NCBI GenBank assembly: GCA_963514005.1
Contig: OY740804.1
Span: 30,690,001 to 30,754,000, forward strand
DNA length: 64,000 nt
Direction of reading: 5' to 3'
From: Raja brachyura
Lineage: Eukaryota
Positions 1-10,057 of the stretch are shown here, in pieces (the stretch's first letter is position 1; each line of letters begins with the position of its first letter). The notes beneath the pieces are model-generated. The model searched no databases. It saw nothing but the letters and a program-made list of their open reading frames with translations, and had not been told where the DNA came from. The position numbers and the translations under genes are program-made.

Positions 1-2297
1 AGTTGTGAGTGTGTTTTGACAAGTTGGTCAAGATCCTCTGGCATCCTCATCTTTAGTTTAAGGCCCATATTTTGTCATATGTACGAAAACCCATACGTTC
101 TCACTATCACCAAAGAAAGACATTTTTTTCTTAAATTAGAAGCCCTGCACTATTGTAACCAAATTAAACGTTACATTTTGTGTCTATCTGCAGTGTAAAC
201 CAGCATCTGCAGTTCGGGACACCCCTGCTTCCTGTGACAGCAGGGCTAGTTATCAAAGGAGTGGGAAGGAACTACAGATGCTGGTTTATATCGAAGATAG
301 ACACATAATGTTGGAGTAACACAGCGGGACAGGCAGGATCTCTGGCTAGAAGGAATGGGTCACAAAATGCCAGAAGAACTCCGCTGGACAGGCAGCGTAA
401 GCTCCGTTTGGAAGGTGTGAGGAAATACTTGCAGTAAAAGGGAGAAAAGGGAGGGAATATTCAATATTCAATATCCAACAAATCAGAAACAGTCAGGAAG
501 AAAAAAATGTTACATTTTCAAATGAAACCACTCACATGGCAGATGGAGCTGAACAGAAGCCTTGGCTTTGGACCAGCAGACTCTTACAACATCACGTGGT
601 GCCACTGAATTCAGGATTAAAACAATTACATAGTTCTTGCAAAATGCACAGAGAAGCATAAACTTTCGCCATCTGCTGGGTCACAAAGTTAAACCGTCGC
701 TATCAAATGTTCTCTCTTACGCTTACGGCCAATGGAGCAAAACCTAAATTGTAAGAATTTGTAGAAAGGAAGTGCAGATGCTGGTAAAAACAAAGTGCTG
801 GAGTAACTCAGCGGGTCAGGCAGCATCACTGGAAAACGTATTTTCAGCGTTTTCTCATGCTTGGTTCTGTTTTATCTGAGAGGGTGAGAGTTAACATGGA
901 GAGAAAACCTTGGTTGACTGTATCCAGATTCTTTGGGATGCATCCAAAATGATCAGAGTGGATAACCACCCTGGTCCGATTGCAACATCTATTTCTGTCA
1001 GTGGGAAAATTCTCGGCTCACGAGTACGGTTTCAGATGTGTTGACATGATTCAGAAGTTAAGGGCTGGCGAGGCAAGGGGAGATGACGCGGTGGATGTAT
1101 GAGGCAAGGGGAGAGGGCACAGAGGTCGTATGAGGAAAATCAGCAAGAAAAAATACCTAATTAATTGTGACAAATCTGCTGAGGTACCAATTAACGCTCT
1201 GCGCATCCAATTTTTATTTATTAAGCCCGGCAGAAGACTCCCGGGATGCTCCGTGCGGTGACAGAAGATTCCCGGGATGCTCTGTGGAGCCGAACGGCCT
1301 GTGGGCCGCCGAGAGCAACCAGACGGACGGGTTGCTGAGAACTAAGTTGGGCCTGGTGGACAGGCCGCCAGGATCAAAGTGGGATCCGCCGGGTGGGGGG
1401 GGGGGGGGGGGGGGTACCAAGAACAACCCGGCAGCTGGGCCTTCGAGAACAGAGGGACCCAGCAAGGGGCTACAAAGAACAAAGAGGGGCCCAGCGGAGG
1501 GTTGTCTGCGGCCACGTGCGCCGGCAGGTCTGGATCGCCGCTGCGTGAAGATAAGACCATACTATGAAGTTATGAAACTTTGCTGGTGTAAGAAACTCTT
1601 TCTGTACTGTCTAGGTGAAGTTTGCTGTATGATTTTACCGGATTGTATGCAAAAACAAAGAATTTCACTGTACCCAGATGCATGTGACATTAAAATATCA
1701 CCATCACCACCACATTCATGACCCATAAGGTCATAAGGAATAGGATGGCTGATCTATCTCTCCCTCCTAACCTCATTCTCCTGCCTCCTTCCCATAACCT
1801 CTGACACCTGGACTCAAAATCTATCAGCAATTCAACCCAACAAGTCAATGTACAGAGCTTGTACTGTCGCGCCTCAACGCGACCACGAGATCGCATAATT
1901 AGCATGCCAACGACACGTAAGTGGGACAGGGGCTTTACCCACCTTCAGTCATCTATAGGTTTTGAGAACTTCAGCTGATATGATTGAATCATTGTTATCT
2001 TTATCCATCTATTCTTTAAACCTCAGAGTGTCTTTCACTGATGCAAAATTATCATAGATTTCACAGAAAACACTGCAAATAGACATTCTGGGCTTCCTGT
2101 TGAAAGTCATTAGATTGGCTGTGAGTATTATTTCCAAGATCTAATTCCTTTTTTTTCTGTGGCAGTATTTCTATTGCCTTCCTTATTTTGCAGCAATGTT
2201 AAGAGACATCACAACGTGGATAAGATGCTGGATGGTATTTGTTGCTGTTGTAGTGTAGATCAGGCATCCTTCTAGTCCCTCACTTAGATAGTGATAT

Positions 2298-2405
2298 AAT
2301 AGTAAGATTAAACGAGAACTTACCAGTTTGAAGTTTGATCTTTATTTTATGAGGAGTTGCGATGAGGGATTTCGTGAAGAACCCGCCAGCACGCATGCGC
2401 GACAT
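2298..2405 (-). repeat. DIRS 3' terminal repeat (35-bp ITR core plus about 73-bp 3' extension)
   Basis: 2371-2405 TTCGTGAAGAACCCGCCAGCACGCATGCGCGACAT is the reverse complement of 7596-7630. 2298-2376 is the exact reverse complement of 2528-2606. Confidence 0.93.
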
Positions 2406-2527
2406 CTCTTCAAAGCAGCGGTGTGGAATCACAGAACCAACAAACCAAAGGAAATGACTTGTGATAGTAAGATTGAAGAGACTCTAGTTACCAGTTGACT
2501 TTATGATCGAGGGTTGGGAGCGGAGGG

Positions 2528-2640
2528 CACGAAATCCCTCATCGCAACTCCTCATAAAATAAAGATCAAACTTCAAACTGGTAAGTTCTCGTTTAATCTT
2601 ACTATTTCATTTCGGAGTCACGTGAGTGACTTCGTGAAGA
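2528..2640. repeat. DIRS internal complementary region (ICR)
   Basis: 2528-2606 complements the left end (2298-2376) and 2604-2640 complements the right end (7621-7657). The two halves overlap on ATT and reproduce the circle junction. Confidence 0.95.
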
Positions 2641-2787
2641 CTTCAAAGCTCTGTGATTACACGCCCTGGACAACGTCCATGCTATCACACACGCCACGAT
2701 AAGGATGGACAGGAGTATCAAACATTTTCAGACTGCTAGTTCTGAAAAATAATAATATTTATTAATAATAACAAAAGAAAAAACCCC

Positions 2788-3777
2788 TCACTGGGGAACA
2801 GCCGAATGACCTCGGCCTGCATTCAGTACAGCTTCTGCAAACATTCCAGGAGCGGTAATAGGTTTATTATAAAACCGTTGAAAGGTGGCTTCACTGGCCC
2901 ATCCCGCTGCGGCTAGAATATGGTCCATGGGCACCTCCATGACCTTTGCCGCCGACGTAGATGCAGCCCTGGTGGAATGGGATTTAAATACATTAGTATC
3001 TATACCTGCTTCGTTCAAAACGATTCTGAGCCATCTGGAGATAGTCTGTACCGTCACTCTATGGTGAGGTCTCTTATGGCTGATTAGCAAGTATTGCTCC
3101 ATTCCCCTTAATTTCCGCGTCACTTTAATATAGTGGCGGATGTGGGTGGCTAAACATAGCCTGGCATCAGCGGGGTATGCTGGAAACACCAGCTGCAGAC
3201 CTGTAAACCCAGGCCTGTGCTGTTTAAGCAATTCATCAATAAAGAAAATAACCTTTTCTGGGGTAGAGATCATTCTATCAATCTTGATCTTATGAAGAGT
3301 CTGTACCCTTTGTGCCGAAGTAAGTGCCAATAACATCACCAACTTCAGGGTGAGTCTGTCCAATTCAAGCCCAATCATGGGCGACCACGTCCTGAGCAGG
3401 GTCAGTACATTCACAATATCCCAGGTAACGTTGTAACGCGGTCTAGGCGGATTGGAATTAAATATTCCCCGCATCAGTTTGGACACCAACGTATTGGATC
3501 CTACCTCCAAATTGAGGTAGTATGATAGTGCGCTCCTGGCGCTGTTGATGGCACTATAGCTGAGGTGTTCGTCATGATGTAACCCCGCAAGGAACTCCAG
3601 CACATCTGTGATTGACACGGAGTCATATGCAATGTCCAAGCGGCCGCAGTAGGTTTCCCATTTCCTGATGTGCGATAAATATTGCCGTCTTGTGGACTCC
3701 CTGCATGATGCTCCTATGGTGTCCATGGTCCTTGATGATAGGCCATACTGCAGTAATGGCCTGTTCAAATCCTGCAA
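2788..3777 (-). CDS. DIRS ORF3, tyrosine recombinase (lambda-integrase family)
   Basis: 329-codon frame with an N-terminal SAM-like region (S.R.ST..QY...W..YC) and catalytic R (SAQR), HSTR, AGW and FQRFY. The frame opens on TTG; the first ATG is only at codon 18. Confidence 0.94.
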   Translation of the reverse strand: MQDLNRPLLQYGLSSRTMDTIGASCRESTRRQYLSHIRKWETYCGRLDIAYDSVSITDVLEFLAGLHHDEHLSYSAINSARSALSYYLNLEVGSNTLVSKLMRGIFNSNPPRPRYNVTWDIVNVLTLLRTWSPMIGLELDRLTLKLVMLLALTSAQRVQTLHKIKIDRMISTPEKVIFFIDELLKQHRPGFTGLQLVFPAYPADARLCLATHIRHYIKVTRKLRGMEQYLLISHKRPHHRVTVQTISRWLRIVLNEAGIDTNVFKSHSTRAASTSAAKVMEVPMDHILAAAGWASEATFQRFYNKPITAPGMFAEAVLNAGRGHSAVPQ

Positions 3778-5693
3778 GCCAATAAATCCAAATGACTATG
3801 GCAGGGATGTGGTTCCCCTGTAACGGGGTTCGTCACCAATATTGGGCAACCCTCCAAGAGGACCCATGGTTGACTGATCATCCCAAGGACCACCGGATAC
3901 CATGACTGAGTAGGCCAGTCGGGTATGATAAGGATGCCATTAGCAGCATCTAGCTGGATTTTCCGCAATACCCGACTGATGAGGCAAAATGGGGGAAATG
4001 CATAGAAAAACCATTTCCCCCAGTCTAGCGAGAAAGCGTCCATCGCTATAGCCCCAGGATCTGGTTCCCATGATACATATGTTGGTACCTGATGGTTTAA
4101 CCGTGACGCAAAAAGGTCAATATCCGGCTTACCAAATTTGGCTGTAATTTGTTTGAATATTTGGGAATTCAACATCCACTCGATGTTATCATTGAATTTC
4201 CGTGACCTGGTGTCCGCCACTATGTTGAGCTTACCTGGTAAATAGGTAGCTGAAATCCAAATATTCCTTTGAATACACCAGAGCCAAATTGTATTTGCCA
4301 ATTCATCACATGAAATTGACCTGGTACCACCCATATGATTTAGATATGCCACCGCAGTGGTGTTGTCTATTTGGAGACGGACATGAGTGTCAGTAAAGTT
4401 TGAACAATAAGCTCTAAGTCCGTGGAATGCCCCAAGCATCTCCAAATAATTTATCCCTTGTGCTAACAAAAGGGTAGATTCTAGTGAGTCCCATCTGCCC
4501 CCACAACTTGTGTTGTTGTCCGTAGCTCCCCAGCCATGGGAGCTTGCGTCTGTTTGTAAGTATACCACCGGACGAGGCACAATGATGGGTTTAAATGAGT
4601 TATGGATATTATCAATCCACCATTGTAACTCAATTTTTGCCTTGAGTGGCAGCTGCATAGGTCTATCAAAATGTCCAGCATTCAATTTTAATGCTGAAAT
4701 CTTGGATCTTTGTAAATTTTGATAATGTAAAGGTCCGAATTGAGCAGCTGGAAAAACTGCTACGATTTTTCCAATTACCTTAGCAGTTTGTCTAATTGAT
4801 GGCATACTGGCGCAGACCAGGTTTTTGCATGTTTGGATGACATCCCCAACCTTGTTAGTTGGTATGGTGGCAATCATGTGATTGGAATCTATGGTGAACC
4901 CCAGATAGTCCATGATCTGTGAAGGACAGAACTTTGATTTATCTGGATGGATAATAAATCCCATTTTTTGGAATATATCCACAGTGGCTGAAACTGCCAA
5001 ATTTGCTGATTCCAATGTATGCCCAATAATGAGGATATCATCTAGATAAGCCATGACCGTGTGATTTGCCCTCCTCAGTGTGGCTAACACTGGCTTGAGT
5101 AATTTGGTAAATAGTCTAGGGGCTGTGGTAAGCCCATTGGGCAAAGCTTTATATTGCCAAAGTTGATCCATCCAGATGAATTTCAAGAACTTCCTGTGAT
5201 GTTTCTGAACGGATACTGAATAGTATGCATCTTTTAAGTCAATGCATGCCATGAAGCAGCCCTCAGAAATCAAAGATTTGGCTGTTTCAAACGTGTCCAT
5301 TTTGAAATGGGTGTATTGTACAAAGATATTCAAATGGGTTAGATCTATAATGACCCGACATCCACCATCTTTTTTGGTTTTAGTAAATATATTGGATACA
5401 AACTCAACCGGCTCATGTGTAGTTCTTTCTATCACACCTTTCTCCAGGAGTCTTAAGATTTCAGCATAGCCTACTGCTGTTTCCTTCTTGGAAAGTGCAA
5501 ATCTGCGATTTGGCATATGCTGAGGTGGAGGAATTTGGCCATTTGTAAACTCAATCTCATAACCCTGAATACTTTGTAGAATAAACTCATCTGAGGTGAT
5601 GGTTTCCCATGCCTCCTTAAACCCCCGCAACCTACCCCCAACATGTGAGGTTAGACATGCCAGTGTATGAAACCCAGACCCCCTTACCTTCAT
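3765..5693 (-). CDS. DIRS ORF2: reverse transcriptase + RNase H + C-terminal DNA adenine methyltransferase-like domain (likely start ATG 5693; open frame from 5774)
   Basis: RT motifs DLKDAY, LPNGLTTAP, YLDD, YLG. RNase H motifs TDAS, INYLEM, DNTTAVAY, LPGKLN..AD..SR. MT-like motifs DLFAS, DAF, YAFPPF, PDWP. ATG 5693 lies in an ACCATG context 2 nt after the gag stop. Confidence 0.95.
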   Translation of the reverse strand: MKVRGSGFHTLACLTSHVGGRLRGFKEAWETITSDEFILQSIQGYEIEFTNGQIPPPQHMPNRRFALSKKETAVGYAEILRLLEKGVIERTTHEPVEFVSNIFTKTKKDGGCRVIIDLTHLNIFVQYTHFKMDTFETAKSLISEGCFMACIDLKDAYYSVSVQKHHRKFLKFIWMDQLWQYKALPNGLTTAPRLFTKLLKPVLATLRRANHTVMAYLDDILIIGHTLESANLAVSATVDIFQKMGFIIHPDKSKFCPSQIMDYLGFTIDSNHMIATIPTNKVGDVIQTCKNLVCASMPSIRQTAKVIGKIVAVFPAAQFGPLHYQNLQRSKISALKLNAGHFDRPMQLPLKAKIELQWWIDNIHNSFKPIIVPRPVVYLQTDASSHGWGATDNNTSCGGRWDSLESTLLLAQGINYLEMLGAFHGLRAYCSNFTDTHVRLQIDNTTAVAYLNHMGGTRSISCDELANTIWLWCIQRNIWISATYLPGKLNIVADTRSRKFNDNIEWMLNSQIFKQITAKFGKPDIDLFASRLNHQVPTYVSWEPDPGAIAMDAFSLDWGKWFFYAFPPFCLISRVLRKIQLDAANGILIIPDWPTQSWYPVVLGMISQPWVLLEGCPILVTNPVTGEPHPCHSHLDLLACRI

Positions 5694-5695
5694 GG

Positions 5696-7456
5696 TTATC
5701 GGCGGTCCCTGACGTTTTTGGTGGGACGTGGAGGTGCTGGGTTGCGCTGGAAATACGGAAACCGCATTTTCCATGCTGGCCGTTGAGGGCCCTGCCCTAA
5801 AAAAGGCCTGGGCTGTTGAGGCTGTTGGTACATAGGAGGCGCTGGAACGTAGGTCCTTGCTGGCCTATCAGTGGGACCTCGTGGCCTGAAATATGGTGTT
5901 TTCTTGGCCGTCTGTCTGGTCACGGGGTGTGACCTCATCAGACCCACTGTTTTGGCATGATCATCTAGGTCTTTGACCTGCTTCGGGAGGTCTTCACCGA
6001 ATAGCTGTCTGGGTGGTGGTGTAGGAGGTGCTCTACATAACCCCGCAAATTTGGGGTTTAATGTCGGCTTGATAATACTTTTCCTAAAAGCATTAATCTC
6101 GTATTGCGTGTTGCAAAGTAGAGCCAGTGCATCCTGATCGATGCTCAAGTCCACTCCATCCACCGACCTTGCAAACGCAGTTATCCCAGATGTGAGCAAC
6201 TTCAGGATCCTCTGTAATTTTACTTCCTGAGTGCGAATGCCCGGGCTGATATTGCCCCAAATCGGCATGTTGACTGTAGGCACATTGAGTGAATTACAAT
6301 TGCCCGGCGCCTTGTGTCTATCCATGGCCTTTGCAAGGACCTCCTCCTGTAGTTGATGATTCGTGAGGAAATCAATGGTAGCAGCCAGCTTGGTATCGAG
6401 GGGTTGGCCCGATGAAACGGGTAATCCAAACTTGGCTGGCACGTCCAGGAGCTCTTCCTGGGGAACTTCAGGTGCAACTGGGGCATGTACCAAAATTTCC
6501 TCCTCTTCTGGCCTCATGCTGCCCATAGATGATGGGGATATGTCCATAAGTCCCCTGGAACTGTGGGCTTCCTGTCTTTGATTAAGCAGGAGTTGTTCCA
6601 TTATCCTCTCCATCCGGTCTATGCGCCCTTCATCATGCATGAATGGGCGATTAGAGTCCTCATGCCCGAAGGAACTTCTGAGGCTCCTATCATCGGCCCG
6701 TACCTCGTCGAGGTAATGTCGGTGCCGTGACGGTAAGTCGCTTCCAGCCGCCTCAGCGATACTGAACGACTCCCGTGCGGATCTGCTCATACGCCTCCTT
6801 TTGGCTGAGCTGCATCCGGCTGCCTCCGTGGGCATATGCGGTGATAAGTCGGCACCCGACGCTCCGGCGTGGTGACCCGACATCCGTGCGGGCTTGCCGA
6901 CTGTCCTTTTTCTGGACCCAGACGGCGTACGGTCCCGTCCATCCCCCCGCGGGGGAAGCGGTGACCGTGGCGAGCCTCCACCTGTGTGACTCTTCCTGGT
7001 CCGACTAGGTGGTGAGTCTCTACTGGCCCTCCTTGGTCTGCCAGTGGACTCAGGTCTCGCTGCTACACCAGGCCGCAATCTAGCGGCACCTGGTGAACCC
7101 TCTGCCCGAAAAGGGCTAGGCTCTCGAGCTCTATCCCTGGCCCTACTATGAGGGCTCAGGGAGAAGGGTCGTGCAGCAGCACGTAAACCCTTTTTGCTCG
7201 CCTCTGCCAATGATCCAGTTGGCGAGAGGGAAATGGAGTCAGGGTCCACCTGCTCCGGCGCTATTCCGACTTCTTGCTCTGCGGGAACCCCGCTAGAGCT
7301 CAGCTGTGCCGGTGATTCGGGTCCTGTGATTACAGGGCTCCCCGATTTGCGCGCCTTTTTCCCGGTCCTTCCAGCGGGCGCTGTAGAAGGGAGCTCCGGG
7401 CTTGGTGGCCTGCAGATCCTTCCGGACGTCCTGCGGCCCTTACTTCTTCTGTCCAT
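5696..7456 (-). CDS. DIRS ORF1, gag-like protein (first ATG at 7456, MDRRSK...; open frame extends to 7489)
   Basis: About 586 codons, uninterrupted. R/S/P-rich N-terminus and a helical C-terminal half (P.VN.PIW...QEVKLQ...LFGEDL). First ORF of the element; TAA at 5698-5696. Confidence 0.85.
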   Translation of the reverse strand: MDRRSKGRRTSGRICRPPSPELPSTAPAGRTGKKARKSGSPVITGPESPAQLSSSGVPAEQEVGIAPEQVDPDSISLSPTGSLAEASKKGLRAAARPFSLSPHSRARDRAREPSPFRAEGSPGAARLRPGVAARPESTGRPRRASRDSPPSRTRKSHTGGGSPRSPLPPRGDGRDRTPSGSRKRTVGKPARMSGHHAGASGADLSPHMPTEAAGCSSAKRRRMSRSARESFSIAEAAGSDLPSRHRHYLDEVRADDRSLRSSFGHEDSNRPFMHDEGRIDRMERIMEQLLLNQRQEAHSSRGLMDISPSSMGSMRPEEEEILVHAPVAPEVPQEELLDVPAKFGLPVSSGQPLDTKLAATIDFLTNHQLQEEVLAKAMDRHKAPGNCNSLNVPTVNMPIWGNISPGIRTQEVKLQRILKLLTSGITAFARSVDGVDLSIDQDALALLCNTQYEINAFRKSIIKPTLNPKFAGLCRAPPTPPPRQLFGEDLPKQVKDLDDHAKTVGLMRSHPVTRQTAKKTPYFRPRGPTDRPARTYVPAPPMYQQPQQPRPFLGQGPQRPAWKMRFPYFQRNPAPPRPTKNVRDRR

Positions 7457-7595
7457 GTTTCTCTGTAGGAAAAAATTACTAACAGACAAACCAACCAGCT
7501 CAAGGTTGATTATACTTACCTGAGTTGGTCCTTATGAGGGCTGGTGGTGAGCCGCGCTCCTCCTCCAGCGGTCGACTGCAAATGCGAGCGACGAT

Positions 7596-7657
7596 ATGTC
7601 GCGCATGCGTGCTGGCGGGTTCTTCACGAAGTCACTCACGTGACTCCGAAATGAAAT
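7596..7657 (-). repeat. DIRS 5' terminal repeat (ITR core plus short extension containing the hairpin AGTCAC-TCAC-GTGACT)
   Basis: Reverse complement of 2371-2405 and of ICR 2604-2640. Confidence 0.93.
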
Positions 7658-7964: not shown

Positions 7965-8866
7965 GTCTAGAGTTTGGATTGTGACTTTTCCCACAAGGCC
8001 TTCTCCAAGAGAATACTGTGCTGGCGATGGCAAAACAATGCTTTGAGCATTTTGTCTTGAAGACTCAGTTGGAGGAGATTTCCCTTCCCCTTCCAAACCA
8101 ATCGCACCTTGATGGGATATTACATTCTTATTACAGACTTTCACAACTTGGGGCTGAAGGAGCAGTTAAAACAACCCTCGGTTGGTACATAACCAGCAAG
8201 TGCTGAACAAATAGAATCTCTGAACAGTGGCAATGCTCAATAAGAGGAAAGACCATAATTGTTCTTTGTCTCGACCAGAAACATCACTTATTCCTTTTCC
8301 CCAGAGATGCTGCCTGATCCACTAAATTACTCTGGCACTTTGTGCCTATCTTCAGTGTAAACCAGCATCTGCAGTTCCCTCCTACACTGTTAGAAATGCC
8401 TAGGTTCTGACATCACTACAATATGGTGCAGTTAATATTATGAACACTTCTTGGTCCTCAGGTTTTTAGTTTAATTAATAGCGTTCAAGTGGCAATCAGA
8501 CATAATTGATGAATAGTTCGCAATATAGCTTAACGATGCAAACCAATAGGAGTAGATATCCTAATCAAGTCTGCTTGCTAATGATCAAGTGCCATAAATT
8601 ATTTGTATTGATTTACAGATTTGCTTTCACCATTACAAAAATATGGTCAGGTCAGAGGTTTTCTTCCTCCACATTGAGAGTCCAGAATGAATTCTGTGGA
8701 TGTGGTTTTTTTTCCAGACTATATGTGATGAATAGAGAAATTGCTGAAGGTTTAACAGTTCGGAGATTAAAGAAAAAATAAAAAGCTTCTCTTCAAATTA
8801 ATGAATTTCAGTAGATGAAGCTGAAAGCTCAACTGGTATGATATTTCCATCCTTCTCCACCACATG

Positions 8867-9040
8867 TGTAGGAAGGAACTGCTGGTTTAAATCGAAGATA
8901 GACACAAAATGCTGGAGTAACTCAGCGAGACAGGCAGCATCTCTGGAGAAAAGGAATGGTCTCGACCCGAAACGTCACCCATTCCTTCTCTCCAGAGATG
9001 CTGCCTGTCCCGCTGAGTTACTCCAGCATTTTGTGTCTAT
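8867..9040. mobile_element. Penelope-derived fold-back insert with 15-bp flanking duplication
   Basis: Repeat unit followed by its inverted copy. CTTCTCCACCACATG occurs at 8852-8866 and 9041-9055. Confidence 0.85.
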
Positions 9041-10057
9041 CTTCTCCACCACATGCTCACACACATCTAGTTTCATTCCATGTGACTGGAAGTCAGCACT
9101 TGAATGGCAAAAAATAGATTATCGAAACAAGGACTTGTCGAAAAGACTCAAAGTGCTGGAGTAACTCGGCAGGTCAGGCAGCATCCCTGGAGAACGTGGA
9201 TAGGTGATGTTTTGGGTCGGGACTCGTCTTCAGAATCTGTTTCTGGTTGGGACACTTCTTCAGGCATCCGTCTTCAAAAATAGATTGTTCACTCAAGAAT
9301 GATTCAATATAGAAATCACATCAACTAGTCTACATCTCGAAGAGACCATAGCGCATAGAAACAGGCCCTTAGGGCCCATCTTGTGATATCTGTCTTCGTT
9401 AATCCATCTGACCACATTAGGATTGTATCCCTCTACTTCATTCTCATCGAAGTACCTGGCCTGATTTAAATGTTGTGATAGTAACTGATGCCACGACCTC
9501 CTCTGGCAGTTTGTGCAAAATATTCATCACTTCCTGCGTAAAGAAACGTACCCCTCCAACCTCCTTTAAATTTCTCTTCTCTCAACTTAAACCTGTGCCC
9601 TCTAGTTTCTTATCCTGGGAAAAGAGTACCCCGTCTGTGCCTCATCATTTTGCAAACCTCTATAACAACACCTGCGCTCCAGTCGAGATTAAACCCATCT
9701 TATTCAATCTCTCCTTATAACAATCCAGAAAATATCCTGGTGGGTCTATATTCTGTTATATGCTAGCACATGCTTCAAGTAGTGTGGGGATCAGAACTGG
9801 ACATATAATCTTCCTTTCTCCTATGCAAGAAAAGAATGGAGTGCAATAAAAGGACAAAATGGATGGGTTACATTTCAGGTCAGGATCCTTCTTCAGAGCG
9901 TTTGATCAGGTGTGACATAAAAACTCAAAAAACAAAGTCTGCGAGACTCAGAGATAAACTCTACATATCTAGACAAACTCTACATATTACGCCAGGGCTG
10001 TTGGAGATCAGCTCCAATTGAAAAACCAAAGATGTTTCTCAAGGCCCACTTCCAATT

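Follow-up and report, generated by a model that had tools for sequence, protein, structure and literature searches.

We find that positions 7657 to 2298 on the minus strand of the window (the whole 64,000-nt stretch analyzed here) hold an intact DIRS1-like retrotransposon. Its pol gene probably also acts as an optional intron, and a single -1 frameshift is predicted to give access to both of its enzymes. Judged from sequence comparisons, the splice that removes pol is very probable, and the fusion of Gag to the tyrosine recombinase (YR) fed by that frameshift is probable. Most ribosomes would make Gag, while some would slip at U-UUU-UUA (5804-5798) into the pol frame, pass the gag stop, and read a 39-codon linker. 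Unspliced RNA would then give a Gag-linker-Pol protein of about 1230 amino acids, and spliced RNA would give Gag-linker-YR of about 915. Because the spliced RNA retains both termini and the internal complementary region (ICR), it could also serve as a template for copying and integration in trans, and copies that lack pol would result. In this lineage, reinitiation at 5693 may serve as an extra route.

Table 1. Parts of the DIRS1-like element, in window positions
Feature	Positions	Strand	Remarks
Whole DIRS1-like element	2298..7657	-	5360 nt, ATT at both ends
Left terminus / left inverted repeat	7590..7657	-	Inverted-repeat pairing (I8, I11)
Possible leader intron, just 5' of gag ATG	7463..7519	-	57 nt; predicted only
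gag-like ORF	5696..7456	-	586 aa, ATG 7456, TAA 5696; no Pfam match
Slippery heptamer T TTT TTA, gag frame	5798..5804	-	Predicted -1 frameshift site into pol frame
Transframe linker	5688..5804	-	39 pol-frame codons, S/T/P/A-rich, ATGs at 5774 and 5693
Splice donor AAG/GTAAGG	5682..5690	-	Phase 0 in pol frame, 8 nt past gag stop
Predicted optional intron	3772..5687	-	1916 nt; contains RT, RNase H, and methyltransferase coding region
pol ORF	3765..5693	-	RVT_1 E 1.8e-21; Dam E 5e-4 (under cut-off)
Splice acceptor ending TTGCAG/G	3771..3791	-	Phase 0 in YR frame
Tyrosine recombinase exon	2788..3771	-	327 codons; first Met codon 16, within predicted helix 13-20
Internal complementary region (ICR)	2528..2640	-	Left 2640-2604, right 2606-2528, overlap on AAT
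Right inverted repeat and right extension	2298..2411	-	Inverted-repeat pairing (I1, I8)

The element has the organization of DIRS1-like elements, with ORFs in the order gag, pol, YR, inverted termini, two ICRs that overlap on 3 nt, and NTT ends (Table 1). The part of Piednoel et al. 2011 (PMC3266345) available to us likewise defines DIRS1-like elements by their termini, two ICRs with a 3-nt junction overlap, and ATT ends. Pfam recognizes the reverse transcriptase (RT) domain in pol; after it come the Dam match under its cut-off and no match to an RNase H family. The third gene encodes a tyrosine recombinase and not a DDE integrase, with PF00589 and PF13495 both above cut-off and a structure model (76-row alignment) of mean pLDDT 93.9. 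An empty-site joint, 2297-7655 with 3 ambiguous or shared letters, is present in contigs of runs X4 and X5, and by this joint the element is inserted at the junction trinucleotide without target-site duplication. We rejected membership in Ngaro or PAT, since there is no direct repeat between the element ends and split direct repeats are thus absent. The family is young and numerous in the 2.7-Gb host genome, where identity is 99-100% across the 40 scored DNA matches and 96-100% across the 150 scored YR matches. On both sides of the element (window 174-833 and 8268-9223) lies a short interspersed repeat in several copies and both orientations. The right terminal extension holds a strong donor-like site at window 2323 (-), mirrored in the ICR, and one related metagenome contig (L104) carries two DIRS copies in inverted orientation.

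The preliminary description joined a donor ATGAAG/GTAAGG at 5688/5687 to an acceptor GGCTTGCAG/GAT at 3772/3771. Both sites are present as described, and the 1916-nt interval between them is phase 0, with each site at a codon boundary, in the pol frame at the 5' side and in the YR frame at the 3' side. The interval has the GT-AG ends and donor consensus of a U2-type spliceosomal intron. By a matrix of rounded frequencies, which was used for all donor and acceptor scores, the donor at 5687 (7.4 bits) is outscored by just one GT of the element, the leader donor at 7519 (8.8 bits). The acceptor alone is middling: 10 of its 17 nt are pyrimidines, which places it 75th when the 354 AGs are ranked by pyrimidine count. 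Locally, no AG in the 330 nt upstream or the 27 nt downstream of it is better. Taken alone, then, the donor and acceptor of the window are not beyond chance. The lack of an early YR start codon is also borne out: the first Met is codon 16 past the acceptor, or codon 18 of the joined peptide, and in the structure model a start there would cut the predicted fold because this Met lies within a helix. The preliminary description overlooked that the pol frame is open for 57 codons upstream of the "pol ATG"; this extension starts with the slippery heptamer and includes a second in-frame ATG at 5774. A contig of run X1, a run that is RNA by guess only, spans the donor unspliced (5504-5815).

The leader donor belongs to a possible intron at 7519-7463 (-), with a perfect donor and a pyrimidine-rich acceptor, that ends 6 nt before the gag ATG. 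The same possible intron is found in sister copies L051 and L070, and its donor is retained in the pol-less copies L040 and L048, the two with the 5' end in view. It is absent from distant families, and for this lack of conservation we dropped it as a part of the splice switch.

Evidence that bears on the splice itself comes from genomic copies without pol. The preliminary description proposed a search for copies deleted exactly at 5687-3772, and about 90 were found, none of them from the window's own subfamily. The exact pol-less junction occurs at 87 genomic places, compared with 0 for a control pattern, and the matching unspliced acceptor (GTT-type) occurs at at least 4622. Three further copies with the exact junction belong to two other subfamilies, and one further GTT-type copy has a variant flank. 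When the gap between two anchors was left free from 3 to 33 nt, the exact length was found in 73/73 matches. The same net loss of 1916 nt is seen in a contig of run X2, one of four public runs examined as contigs; the joint was in no contig of runs X1, X4, and X5, where contigs show presence, not absence.

For trees and comparison, 20 of the 87 pol-less copies and 20 of the at least 4622 unspliced ones were fetched. The pol-less state needs two changes in the tree of the YR-side flank (44 rows) or three in that of the gag-side flank (42 rows, L040 and L062 being omitted where this region is missing), and the starred branches of the flank trees force two changes of the pol-less label. These trees point to at least two, and probably three, separate origins of the pol-less copies. 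Genome pattern searches found no pol-less copies in the window's own subfamily, in the ATT-type family, or among 1230 GAT-type acceptors, and we count these absences against the splice. The zero among the GAT-type acceptors is unremarkable, since pol-less copies arose only about three times among the GTT-type copies, which number at least 4622.

It is also conceivable that nothing is spliced, that ribosomes enter YR through internal initiation or a second frameshift, this time out of pol, and that pol was lost by template switching at a 4-nt microhomology. AGGT is indeed common to both sites in all pol-less copies and in every subfamily that yielded them, which we count against splicing, and deletions of other kinds do occur in these elements. 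L081 has another internal deletion, of 840 nt, and L129 (1230-1600), a copy of a distant family, has lost most of pol and reads through linker and YR in one open frame; we rejected L129 as a spliced copy because its break is not at the splice donor. However, about 20,000 other deletions of at least 1 kb in the element offer equal microhomology, so two or three separate losses at one pair would be improbable if deletions were evenly spread, and this holds even at 1000 deletion events, a number that is assumed.

The large pol-less family (L031-L050) has a slippery T-run that is 2 nt shorter, which in 18 of the 20 copies brings gag into the reading frame of the linker and YR. The full T-run is retained in L171-L173. 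Stops interrupt YR in 17/20 fetched copies of the large family, many copies also have stops in the linker, and selection on a fused protein was thus not used as support. In L032, L036, and their kin, tandem repeats of ~280 nt in the 5' part of gag make that end longer than in the full-length element. L040 lacks nearly all of gag as well as pol and has both termini and an open YR frame.

Are the sites conserved beyond this genome? Our sample comprises 33 representatives, 26 from metagenome loci and 7 from the host's own genome. The metagenome scan gave 80 loci, which were reduced to a single locus for each cluster in which the 5' end of pol is visible; the other 54 were near-duplicates, fragments, or frame-broken cluster mates. 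Single-protein scans for related loci in metagenome and viral contigs gave no matches. Between the gag stop and the GGRL motif, the best donor is in phase 0 in 31/33 representatives, so the donor whose conservation the preliminary description proposed to test is conserved in phase in all but two. A donor that scores at least 4 bits and is in phase 0 was found in 27/33 representatives, versus 10/947 like-sized windows of pol. This phase-0 donor is kept within an otherwise unconserved linker, which also argues against a history without splicing. Codon choice at the donor (27/27 G-ending, 16/16 AGY) is not counted as separate evidence, since the test is partly circular, the best-scoring GT being the one picked.

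The acceptor is not fixed in place. The best acceptor near the end of pol is in phase 0 and within the open YR frame in 25/33 representatives, where 5.3 are expected; it fails in the remaining 8, and its position moves. By family, it sits immediately 3' of the FPPF codons (about -216), at -201, -78, or -75, or at the window's site, and wherever it sits, the YR frame is open from that point on. In the 12 families with an AG after FPPF, the YR frame is open from there in 11 and an AG occupies the window's site in none, whereas in the 19 families with no AG after FPPF, the YR frame is open in 4 and an AG is found at the window's site in 12 (L084 and L129, in which the motif is missing, are excluded). 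The TAG of the acceptor itself is the final stop of the YR frame in 6 families. A quick tree places the window-type acceptor in one clade and requires 5 changes among the three acceptor classes; because the families are related in this way, the counts of representatives overstate their independence.

Within the host genome, 20 copies of more distant families (pol and YR ~65% identical) have both sites at the same place and phase where the region is whole; a few of these copies are mutated or misaligned. We also examined 40 proteins, 28 of them long matches and 12 annotated matches. Three NCBI protein models from two echinoderms (P0049, P0122, and P0123) consist of gag, an FFR-led linker, Glu, and then YR, with RT absent, and these models, which are automatic, join the linker to YR at the window's acceptor position. 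P0103, a partial protein model from a coral, begins exactly past the place of the FPPF-type acceptor; this placement was judged from P0082, its relative.

If pol can be removed, how would ribosomes enter pol and YR? The preliminary description had both newly started by termination-reinitiation at the ATG 2 nt past the gag stop, giving free Pol and free YR. Its splice, with YR in frame, stands; its start codon is not general. It is tempting to accept this start, since TAA-CC-ATG-G/A in good context is found 2 nt after the gag stop in 6/7 own-genome representatives, down to ~65% protein identity, and this we count against the fusion model. However, 17/20 sister copies have ACG at this place, including the intact L052, L057, and L064, in which pol and YR are nevertheless open. 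ACG is a possible near-cognate start codon and, in the same context, could serve here. An ATG is missing from this place in all 26 distant families, and in 19 of them the open pol frame contains none at all upstream of the donor. Reinitiation would also leave a conserved slippery heptamer and an open linker unexplained. Altogether, we regard reinitiation as the general route to free Pol and free YR as unlikely.

The heptamer provides the basis for the frameshift that we favor instead. An X XXY YYZ heptamer in the gag register lies within the gag/pol overlap in 30/31 testable representatives, compared with 30/205 gag windows, and 29 of these heptamers are TTTTTTA, TTTTTTG, or AAAAAAC. Behind the heptamer of the window, the -1 frame is open, as -1 programmed ribosomal frameshifting requires. 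Folding behind the heptamers is weakly better than in shuffles (mean z of -1.05 over 29, -2.3 for the window; pseudoknots are outside the fold model). In the pol/YR overlap, heptamers are scattered and occur in 11/33 representatives; the window has no heptamer there. The position of the first YR ATG varies between codon 1 and codon 174, or there is none within 200 codons. From a conserved gag/pol heptamer, no such signal at pol/YR, and no conserved YR ATG, we infer that the -1 frameshift takes place at 5804-5798. A caution for a fused protein is that, according to the available part of PMC3783388, a protease capable of freeing YR from Gag is missing from DIRS pol.

The same observations bear on the possibility that nothing is spliced. 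A review quoted in the portion of PMC13003380 available to us considers a programmed frameshift into YR probable for Ngaro, but here the pol/YR heptamers are few and scattered, no YR ATG is conserved, and pol was lost exactly at least twice among about 20,000 equally good pairs. We therefore give this possibility little credence.

A third arrangement would read the T-run, which ends in TAG at 5797, as an acceptor that lets the leader donor at 7519 skip gag, so that three-way alternative splicing gives pol and YR their own mRNAs. No donor in the element is stronger than the leader donor, and the T-run with its AG is a good acceptor in 17/29 families. But in 12 of the 29 main heptamers (AAAAAAC, TTTTTTG, or TTTTTTA with no G after it) there is no AG, so these cannot be acceptors. 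The heptamer also holds the gag reading register, most distant families lack a matching leader donor, most families lack a following ATG, and the leader donor is kept in both pol-less copies with the 5' end in view. This arrangement seems very unlikely to us.

Returning to the frameshift combined with a splice, it is somewhat probable that animal DIRS1 elements share one old plan: a -1 frameshift and a splice switch between Gag-Pol and Gag-recombinase, with an acceptor that has shifted several times within the end of pol and an open YR frame that has followed it, and with a mobile spliced RNA that has founded pol-less families. Such a plan would explain how a recombinase gene without a usable start codon is translated, and it would account for the long and short ORF overlaps seen among families. 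It predicts where the N-terminus of a eukaryotic tyrosine recombinase truly lies, suggests a route for the recombinase into the Gag particle, and would give the host spliceosome a handle on the mobility of the element. DIRS1 elements are widespread, and DIRS1 and Ngaro together make up 2.1% of the zebrafish genome according to the accessible text of PMC9341512. In the literature covered, the only statement we found on YR translation guesses a frameshift from pol. Our literature search, which also took in parts of PMC5633606, PMC6681497, and PMC9210276, found no account of DIRS splicing or of a slippery site; the main reviews were outside its scope, and a prior mention is possible. In the available part of PMC7192593, splicing concerns only a marker intron.

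The predicted plan combines features that are familiar from other retroelements. In retroviruses, pol is removed as an intron to make the env mRNA for the 3' ORF, and HIV-type Gag-Pol is made via a U-UUU-UUA slippery site. The element described here would likewise remove pol as an intron to express its 3' ORF, with the same slippery sequence predicted for Gag-Pol. In contrast to retroviruses, it has no envelope; its 3' ORF encodes the integrating enzyme, and the same frameshift would fuse this enzyme to Gag.

Closer relatives share the gene order rather than a described mechanism. The DIRS1-like elements of Piednoel et al. 2011 (PMC3266345) resemble ours in their gag, pol (RT, RH, MT), and YR ORFs, inverted termini, two ICRs, and ATT ends, and their ORFs overlap, with long overlaps in half of 28 elements. 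Splicing and translation are not mentioned in the part of that paper available to us; here, overlap length tracks the position of the phase-0 acceptor. In Ngaro, pol and YR overlap at the end of pol, with YR in the -1 frame; Poulter and Butler 2015, as quoted in the accessible part of PMC13003380, consider a frameshift from pol into YR probable. Here, by contrast, gag/pol is the only overlap with a conserved frameshift signal, and the predicted splice would give access to YR. The nearest analogy is Ty1/Copia (Oberlin et al. 2017, PMC5580714, available in part), in which a conserved alternative splice yields a subgenomic GAG RNA and controls the proportions of the retroelement proteins. Gag is the sole product of that spliced RNA, whereas here splicing is predicted to swap RT for the recombinase.
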